From positions 53,592 through 117,591 of the forward strand of contig CAWHEV010000006.1 of NCBI GenBank assembly GCA_963828485.1: a DNA stretch of 64,000 nucleotides, given 5' to 3'. Under the pieces are notes generated by a model, which worked only from the letters and a program-made list of their open reading frames with translations, was not told the origin of the DNA and did no database searches. The translations under genes were made by a program, and so were the position numbers. The first letter of the stretch is position 1. Every line of letters starts with the position of its first letter. This DNA comes from an uncultured Chloroflexia bacterium (GTDB lineage: Bacteria; Chloroflexota; Limnocylindria; QHBO01). This document shows positions 51,455 to 51,798 of the stretch, in pieces.

Positions 51455-51762
51455 TCCGTGAGAACAACGAGACCCCTTCGCCTCAACGGGCGAGGGGGTC
51501 GTCTCACGGTGCCACCGTTGTTCCCGGGGTTGTTCTCGTCCCCGGCTCGATTCGACCACGGAGCCCGCGCATCGCTCGCTCGATGGTCTCGGCTTCGGTA
51601 TCGGTGCCTCTCCGCCGGGGGCTACTGGCTCGTCGCGTTCGCCTCCGGAGCTCGCGGGTCCATTCGCCGGTCGCGCCGCCGCCGGGGTCTCAGCCTTCCC
51701 GGCTCCCTGTGGGCTCGCCTGACGCGGGTAATCGTCCCGGTCGTCGCCTTCTTCTAATGTCG
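51455..51762 (-). ncRNA. T-box riboswitch, tryptophan specifier
   Basis: T-box AACAACGGTGGCACCGTG (51505-51522). Stem I has a CAGGGAG bulge, GCTGAGA distal loop and GAA-UGG-A specifier (UGG at 51660-51662). Antiterminator AACGG/CCGUU and GUGAG/CUCGC; alternative hairpin before GGAGG. Confidence 0.9.
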
Positions 51763-51768
51763 CGACGG

Positions 51769-51798
51769 ACCGTACGCCCCACGACGTCGCGACGTCAA
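51769..51798 (-). promoter_or_regulatory. Sigma70 promoter of the T-box-trpB2 transcript
   Basis: TTGACG-N18-TACGGT on the minus strand. Confidence 0.6.

Follow-up and report, generated by a model that had tools for sequence, protein, structure and literature searches.

Comparative evidence for a tRNA-Trp-sensing T-box leader upstream of a stand-alone trpB2 gene in a high-GC member of the Chloroflexota

Introduction

TrpB2 is an alpha-independent enzyme that makes tryptophan from indole. Indole salvage was reportedly proposed for Thermotoga TrpB2 by Hettwer and Sterner in 2002, and the use of O-phosphoserine by TrpB2 enzymes is said to have been described by Busch et al. in 2014.

The out-of-operon subgroup TrpB2_o occurs mostly in species that have an operon trpB1, and no second conserved trpB2 neighbourhood was detected in the study that defined the group (Merkl, 2007, PMC1854888); an 'indole-scavenging' beta-2 has also been distinguished (PMC2700814). 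The gene studied here resembles both in lying outside a trp operon in which trpB1 and trpA are found and in matching the NF009057 equivalog, and its subgroup is assigned by location. Those papers describe neither a conserved neighbourhood nor a mode of regulation for trpB2_o, whereas in this genome and widely across the Chloroflexota the gene has a Trp T-box of its own.

Chloroflexi are among the T-box-bearing phyla (Sun et al., 2013, PMC3766115), and T-boxes before trpE and before a 'trpB-like' gene have been reported in Dehalococcoides (Wels et al., 2008, PMC2494555). The present genome has in common with Dehalococcoides the phylum, a small T-box repertoire (ileS, the trpE operon and a trpB-like gene) and the amino-acid specificity, although the Dehalococcoides gene was matched by the description 'trpB-like' only. 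The trpB2 T-box is accordingly a further case of an arrangement published for Chloroflexi in 2008 (PMC2494555), here in the Limnocylindria, and because the pair of trpE and trpB-like T-boxes has been in the Chloroflexi literature since then, it opens no new question. Compared with other Chloroflexota, this case has a Limnocylindria-like host of 70% GC; its leader contains an extra, inserted hairpin, and its U tail is short and interrupted and abuts the Shine-Dalgarno sequence (SD), in contrast to the classic U-run and the spacer of 60–200 nt in other classes.

Two described types of T-box are relevant to the expression platform. With the transcriptional RF00230 type, exemplified by Bacillus subtilis tyrS and glyQS, the leader shares the Stem I elements, Stem II, Stem IIA/B, Stem III, a 7-nt bulge with UGGN, competing helices and typical energies; unlike that type it scores 36.8 bits against a threshold of 93, is GC-rich, contains an extra hairpin and ends in a weak tail. 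With the translational ileS T-boxes of Actinobacteria (Seliverstov et al., 2005, PMC1262725) it shares a high-GC host, an SD very near the alternative hairpin and the lack of a strong U-run. It differs from them in that their SD lies inside the sequestrator and they have no terminator, whereas here the SD is not part of the conserved hairpin and the tail is U-enriched.

Results and Discussion

Identification of the leader

The leader lies on the minus strand of the window, by which is meant the whole 64,000-nt stretch of DNA that was analysed, and comes from a genome of 2.9 Mb and 69–70% GC in 13 contigs. An initial annotation had described it as a complete Trp T-box before a stand-alone trpB2 and had named a search with RF00230 as a way to check this; it gave no strand. 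Scanned at Rfam gathering thresholds, the whole window gives no match to any family, T-box included. A permissive local search of positions 51300–52000 (701 nt) does return a full-length alignment to RF00230, covering model positions 1–219 of 219 and window positions 51753..51483 on the minus strand, with a score of 36.8 bits (E 1.6e-6) against a gathering threshold of 93 bits. The match thus appears in the permissive search only, and at the threshold the proposed check finds no hit. Because the leader is only sub-threshold in Rfam, the case for it depends on comparative evidence.

The missing match at gathering would fit a T-box that has decayed or lost its function, or a resemblance below threshold that arose by chance, with trpB2 constitutive or otherwise controlled. 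Against this stands the behaviour of the other T-boxes in the same genome, where RF00230 has five matches, all below gathering (70.8, 69.9, 58.3, 36.8 and 29.5 bits), and the specifier-gene pairs are UGG with the trpE operon, GUC with valS, CUC with leuS, AUC with ileS and UGG with trpB2. Since the leaders of valS, leuS and ileS fall short as well, the low score is taken to reflect lineage and base composition.

All the parts listed in the initial annotation are present on the minus strand (Table 1). Stem I carries in its specifier loop a codon followed by a purine, together with an AG bulge and a distal loop, as a T-box should, and its distal helix has three compensatory pairs. In the covariance alignment GAA-UGG-A falls at the specifier position, in agreement with the earlier reading of UGG. 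UGG is invariant in all 15 related leaders aligned, and orthologous leaders with scores of 98–130 bits have it in the same place.

A promoter upstream of the leader had also been claimed. A sigma-70 consensus scan finds none, because its 4-of-6 rule rejects a high-GC -10 of the TANNNT type, yet phylogenetic footprinting recovers the pattern TTGAC[A/G]-17/18 nt-TANNNT in 13 of 13 related leaders, at a constant distance from Stem I, and this conservation supports the predicted promoter.

Table 1. Features of the trpB2 leader and gene. Positions are those of the window.
Feature	Position	Strand	Basis or remark
Promoter -35, TTGACG	51793..51798	-	TTGAC[A/G] invariant in 13/13 related leaders
Promoter -10, TACGGT (TANNNT type), 18 nt past -35	51769..51774	-	TA[C/A/G][C/G][G/T]T in 13/13 leaders
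Stem I: base helix, GA/K-turn region, specifier loop, AG bulge, distal helix and loop	51649..51748	-	RF00230 alignment and structure on alignment A1
AG bulge, AGGGA	51708..51704	-	Stem I
Stem I distal loop	51697..51687	-	RF00230 alignment
Specifier codon UGG (Trp), with purine A next at 51659	51662..51660	-	Covariance alignment, context GAA-UGG-A
Stem II with GAA / AGUA S-turn elements	51615..51648	-	96% paired; both sides changed in 3 pairs
Stem IIA/B pseudoknot element and F-box-like CCGAUA	51591..51614	-	RF00230 alignment
Lineage-specific inserted hairpin between IIA/B and Stem III	51554..51588	-	Insertion relative to Rfam model; RNAalifold
Stem III	51524..51545	-	Pair 273/290 = CG:7 GC:7
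Stem III 10-nt loop with invariant GAGAACA	51539..51530	-	Alignment A1
T-box sequence / antiterminator: helix A1 AACGG/CCGUU, bulge UGGCACC, helix A2 GUGAG/CUCGC	51485..51519	-	RF00230 alignment, RNAalifold, pair counts
T-box GGUGGCACC	51516..51508	-	RF00230 alignment
UGGC within 7-nt antiterminator bulge	51514..51511	-	RF00230 alignment
Terminator hairpin, mutually exclusive with antiterminator	51471..51500	-	Folding; flagged terminator-like by scan
Interrupted U-rich tail UCUCGUUGUUCUC(AC)	51458..51470	-	GUUGUUCUC invariant within tail
Shine-Dalgarno GGAGG, 8 nt upstream of ATG	51453..51457	-	Read from sequence; conserved in relatives
ATG start of trpB2	51444..51442	-	Sequence
trpB2, TrpB-like PLP enzyme, 445 aa	50107..51444	-	NF009057, TIGR01415, Pfam PALP

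Conservation of the structure

The canonical ON-state structure was written by coordinates onto an alignment of 15 Limnocylindria-type leaders (alignment A1) and comprises Stem I in seven segments, Stem II, IIA, IIB, the inserted hairpin, Stem III, and helices A1 and A2 of the antiterminator. Standard pairs occupy 97.6% of the cells across the 15 leaders, compared with 31–47% when the 3' partners are slid by 1–3 columns. Changes on both sides are found in 14 of the 62 pairs versus 5.7 ± 1.2 in shuffled alignments, none of 500 shuffles reaching 14. Compensation is seen in the Stem I distal helix, Stem II, the inserted hairpin, Stem III (CG:7 GC:7) and both antiterminator helices (CG:8 AU:7 and GC:8 AU:7). 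Helices 1–4 of Stem I are 95–100% paired with five pairs changed on both sides, and the inserted hairpin is 96% paired with three such pairs. All six pairs of Stem IIA/B are invariant, so that covariation speaks neither for nor against that element. RNAalifold alone recovered the antiterminator, Stem III, Stem II and the inserted hairpin; the long-range pairs that it also proposed (the tail with the 5' end, and the specifier region with the 3' strand of the terminator) were judged spurious because they compete with well-supported helices.

The antiterminator, AACGG-UGGCACC-GUGAG...CUCGC-CCGUU, is 100% paired and shows compensatory CG-to-AU and GC-to-AU changes, in either direction, in its helices A1 and A2. 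The terminator hairpin, which shares a strand with it, is 90% paired on alignment A2, where one pair appears as CG:8 UG:4 UA:3. Three positions, G269 of the antiterminator, C286 of the shared strand and G295 of the terminator, change together to A, U and A in the second subgroup, the signature of two alternative helices both under selection.

The cognate tRNA

ARAGORN finds one tRNA-Trp gene in the genome, with anticodon CCA (G000:C3:241931-242006), whose 3' end, ...CGCCCCU-G-CCA, has discriminator G73 and an encoded CCA. The specifier UGG fits the anticodon, and UGGC fits GCCA by Watson-Crick pairs throughout, so the pairing that the initial annotation had stated is confirmed on the genome's own tRNA-Trp sequence. 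According to TBDB, 46% of Trp T-boxes have U at that bulge position and rely on a G:U pair; the trpB2 leader instead has the fully complementary C. Taken with the full-length alignment and the conserved structure, the matching tRNA confirms the leader, as far as comparison of sequences can, as a genuine T-box that senses tRNA-Trp.

Expression platform

As the initial annotation had it, the UGGC bulge belongs to a formable antiterminator, and an alternative hairpin with a weak U-rich tail lies just before GGAGG. The two helices fold at -8.1 kcal/mol (antiterminator) and -20.4 kcal/mol (hairpin), values that match the TBDB averages for transcriptional T-boxes of -7.4 ± 4.2 and -19.5 ± 7.9 kcal/mol, respectively. 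The tail UCUCGUUGUUCUC is followed by 2 nt, GGAGG, 8 nt and AUG. A hairpin followed by an interrupted U-rich tail is the layout common to all five T-boxes of the genome, and an SD-like motif comes soon after the tail in each except trpE, where no clear SD was seen. In the 12 nt past the five hairpins, 30 of 60 positions are U, against 15% expected (P 3e-10). With identity down to 70–85%, the paralogous trpE leaders in the genus still keep the tail start UU[G/C]U[C/U]GU, and their Stem III loops vary freely. In other classes of Chloroflexota, the hairpin of the trpB2 T-boxes is of the classic kind, with a U-run, and a spacer of 60–200 nt follows. The energies, the U-enriched tails, the kept tail start at trpE and the U-runs in other classes together favour intrinsic termination with a weak tail typical of the lineage. 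The mechanism is probably tRNA-Trp-dependent transcription attenuation of a monocistronic trpB2 by a class-I, full-length T-box. Counting against it are the low Rfam score, the composition of the tail, a poor U-tract with 6 U in 12 broken by G and C, and the proximity of the SD, which begins 13 nt past the conserved hairpin. Efficient intrinsic termination at such interrupted tails in this phylum is putative.

The weak U-tract and the position of the SD, 0–2 nt past the tail in 14 of the 15 leaders, would also suit a T-box of the same specificity whose control is mainly or additionally translational, in which charged tRNA would leave the ribosome-binding region hidden by an extended hairpin helix or by a pseudoknot between the Stem III loop and the tail. 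T-boxes of the translational type are known from high-GC Actinobacteria (PMC1262725). In the minimum-energy fold of the window's leader, the first two G of the SD are taken up by a helix between CCGUGAGA and UCUCACGG, and a second helix joins GUGGC of the T-box to GCCAC just past the SD. The four outer pairs that reach the SD, however, hold in only 6–9 of the 15 leaders and without compensation, only the inner GAGA/UCUC of this outer extension being universal on the alignment. Partition-function folding of the 15 leaders gives a mean unpaired probability of the SD of 0.36 unconstrained (OFF) versus 0.31 with the antiterminator enforced (ON). A conserved outer helix sequestering the SD was rejected on these grounds: it is confined to the genus group of the window, and folding shows no contrast between ON and OFF states. 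Translational T-boxes of the ileS type have the SD within the 3' strand of a conserved sequestrator and no terminator tail; here, by contrast, the 3' strand of the conserved hairpin does not include the SD, and U-enriched tails, which a pure sequestrator would not need, follow the hairpin in all five T-boxes of the genome. Control at the level of translation, whether main or additional, is thus rather unlikely. It may have been added on in the window's genus, as opposed to being the conserved mechanism.

In its pseudoknot form, which is doubtful to the same degree, translational control would have the Stem III loop GAGAACAAC pair with the tail GUUGUUCUC, ending 2 nt before GGAGG, and uncharged tRNA would free the SD. 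Loop and tail are both invariant and, in the window, are complementary over 9 bp (-11.1 kcal/mol): the loop measures 9–10 nt and contains GAGAACA in 15 of 15 leaders, and GUUGUUCUC is equally invariant. Among 20000 random loops of the same composition, 32 reach 7 nt of complementarity. Because loop and tail are both invariant in the clade, their covariation cannot be scored. The complementarity is absent from the trpE leaders and from distant trpB2 T-boxes, whose Stem III loops measure 3–5 nt by a crude automated parse. The pairing may be a pseudoknot or a coincidence in a shallow clade. A bolder version, which we consider improbable, is that the enlarged Stem III loop of the Limnocylindria pairs with GUUGUUCUC across the terminator hairpin and, since the pseudoknot would end 2 nt before the SD, gates both transcription and ribosome access; if true, the expression platform would be a hybrid one, suited to a high-GC lineage whose U-tracts are poor.

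A pairing between the tail and the A-rich stretch that precedes GGUGG (GGGAACAAC) was considered separately and set aside, the 5' strand being the conserved start of the T-box consensus, which is found too in trpE leaders without matching tails.

The initial annotation had left control as either transcriptional or translational. The energies, the U-enriched tails and an SD outside the conserved hairpin lean towards the former. Under the favoured attenuation mechanism, the leader would be transcribed from the TTGACG-18-TACGGT promoter, and the UGG specifier of Stem I would read the CCA anticodon of tRNA-Trp. An uncharged tRNA would pair through its free 3' end, G73-C-C-A, with UGGC in the 7-nt bulge and stabilise the weak antiterminator (-8 kcal/mol), so that RNA polymerase would read on into trpB2, whose SD lies 2 nt past the tail. 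With charged tRNA, the stronger hairpin (-20 kcal/mol) would form and transcription would end in the U-enriched tail. From the elements, their conservation, the matching tRNA and the identity of the gene, all of which are shown here, we infer the dependence on tRNA, the level at which control acts and the part that TrpB2 plays in physiology.

The trpB2 gene and its genomic setting

The product of the gene scores 739.1 bits with NF009057 (cut-off 366) and 662.8 bits with TIGR01415 (cut-off 518.85), compared with 149 bits, below the cut-off of 392.45, for canonical TrpB (TIGR00263). Lying above the equivalog cut-off and below that of canonical TrpB, it is by profile assignment TrpB2. The leader is clearly tied to this one gene only. 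The next ORF begins 107 nt downstream of trpB2 and encodes 302 aa with no family match.

No trpA lies within the 64,000-nt window, in accordance with the earlier statement that none is nearby. That statement does not extend to the genome, in which a check for both genes finds trpA and trpB1 in a trp operon, trpE-trpG-trpD-(trpC/F/B)-trpA, on contig C10, trpB2 being on C6; the sole match to PF00290 (trpA) in the genome is likewise on another contig than trpB2. The gene therefore lies outside a trp operon whose trpB1 is in the same genome, which is the arrangement that defines TrpB2_o. The operon stands behind its own UGG/UGGC T-box. The initial annotation had inferred that TrpB2 is induced by tryptophan starvation; the case that it belongs to a Trp-starvation regulon is strengthened by this T-box, a paralogous Trp leader ahead of the genome's own trp operon.

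Within the operon, an uninterrupted ORF of 887 aa (L007:3685-6348; G000:C10:177684-180347) contains TrpC at residues 1–262, TrpF at about 279–486 and TrpB1 at 498–881, an apparent trpC-trpF-trpB triple fusion.

Two further observations concern the neighbours of trpB2. Two genes downstream is an ORF of 925 aa (window 46310–49087, minus strand) with no family in its N-terminal third, enolase-like N and C domains at 343–661 and a histidine-phosphatase domain (PspA/GpmB-like) at 726–912. A co-transcribed downstream operon was considered and rejected, as relatives have neither the 302-aa ORF nor the 925-aa fusion next to trpB2. Divergent from the leader, at window 51839–52594 (plus strand), are ORFs of 176 aa and 74 aa without Pfam or NCBIfam match; relatives generally lack the upstream divergent ORFs next to trpB2, and counterparts of the Cys-rich 74-aa ORF, 66–70% identical, adjoin trpB2 in two relatives (L096, L097).

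Distribution in the Chloroflexota

The closest TrpB2 relatives are from Chloroflexota MAGs labelled Candidatus Limnocylindria. An actinobacterial origin, which the GC content could have suggested, is rejected on this ground. A pair of hallmarks, GAATGG[AG] followed 100–220 nt later by GGTGGCACC, was searched upstream of trpB2 and is found in about 25 of the best 80 loci, nearly all of them from Chloroflexota of the classes Limnocylindria, Anaerolineae, Chloroflexia and Caldilineae; none of the proteobacterial, actinobacterial or archaeal trpB2 loci among these 80 has the pair. Six orthologous trpB2 leaders from Anaerolineae, Chloroflexia and Caldilineae pass gathering with 93.2–129.6 bits and the same GAA-UGG-A specifier, whereas in the same scan none of four Limnocylindria-type loci does. 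Because the orthologous leaders of other classes pass and those of Limnocylindria type do not, the shortfall is attributed to base composition and insertions.

Within the genus, a search of 36 genomes, many of them incomplete, located trpB2 in 8, and the loci with upstream sequence present have the T-box hallmarks as well. At 16 same-class trpB2 loci from other families (L099-L113, L115; 63–70% identity), there is no T-box within 1.5 kb. With these 16 loci lacking a T-box that more distant classes of Chloroflexota have, the linkage of T-box and trpB2 is patchy, suggesting loss or transfer of the cassette.

This sparse occurrence, 8 of 36 genomes and 16 loci without a T-box, would again suit a remnant or a chance match. 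That explanation must also accommodate an element whose functional parts are each intact and conserved with compensatory changes, behind a conserved promoter, with orthologous leaders that pass gathering and with specifier and discriminator positions that fit the cognate tRNA. It is strongly disfavoured already, and we give it almost no credence.

A tRNA gene within the leuS T-box

The most interesting by-product of the analysis lies outside the window, in the Leu (CUC) T-box of leuS (G000:C9:79146-79447, equivalent to L009:247-548). A complete tRNA-Ala(GGC) gene with encoded CCA (L009:418-493), the sole tRNA-Ala(GGC) of the genome, is situated in the Stem III loop (GACCGA...UCGGUC) of this T-box. 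Stem I, tRNA and T-box lie contiguously before leuS, at 79–92% identity, in at least 17 same-genus genomes, a count that leaves out the unpublished genome G006, on which no claim about the trpB2 leader rests. Excision of the tRNA-Ala would sever Stem I of the leuS leader from its antiterminator. To our knowledge, no T-box described so far contains a tRNA gene.

Conclusions

The T-boxes of Chloroflexota with 70% GC are missed wholesale at Rfam gathering (0 of 5 here), which matters for the automated annotation of MAGs: since all five leaders are sub-threshold despite coherent pairing of specifier and gene, standard annotation would list no T-box in the lineage. For the enzyme, the trpB2 leader offers modest regulatory support for the view that an out-of-operon TrpB2 serves tryptophan supply, because the gene appears to be wired to the charging of tRNA-Trp exactly like the trp operon.
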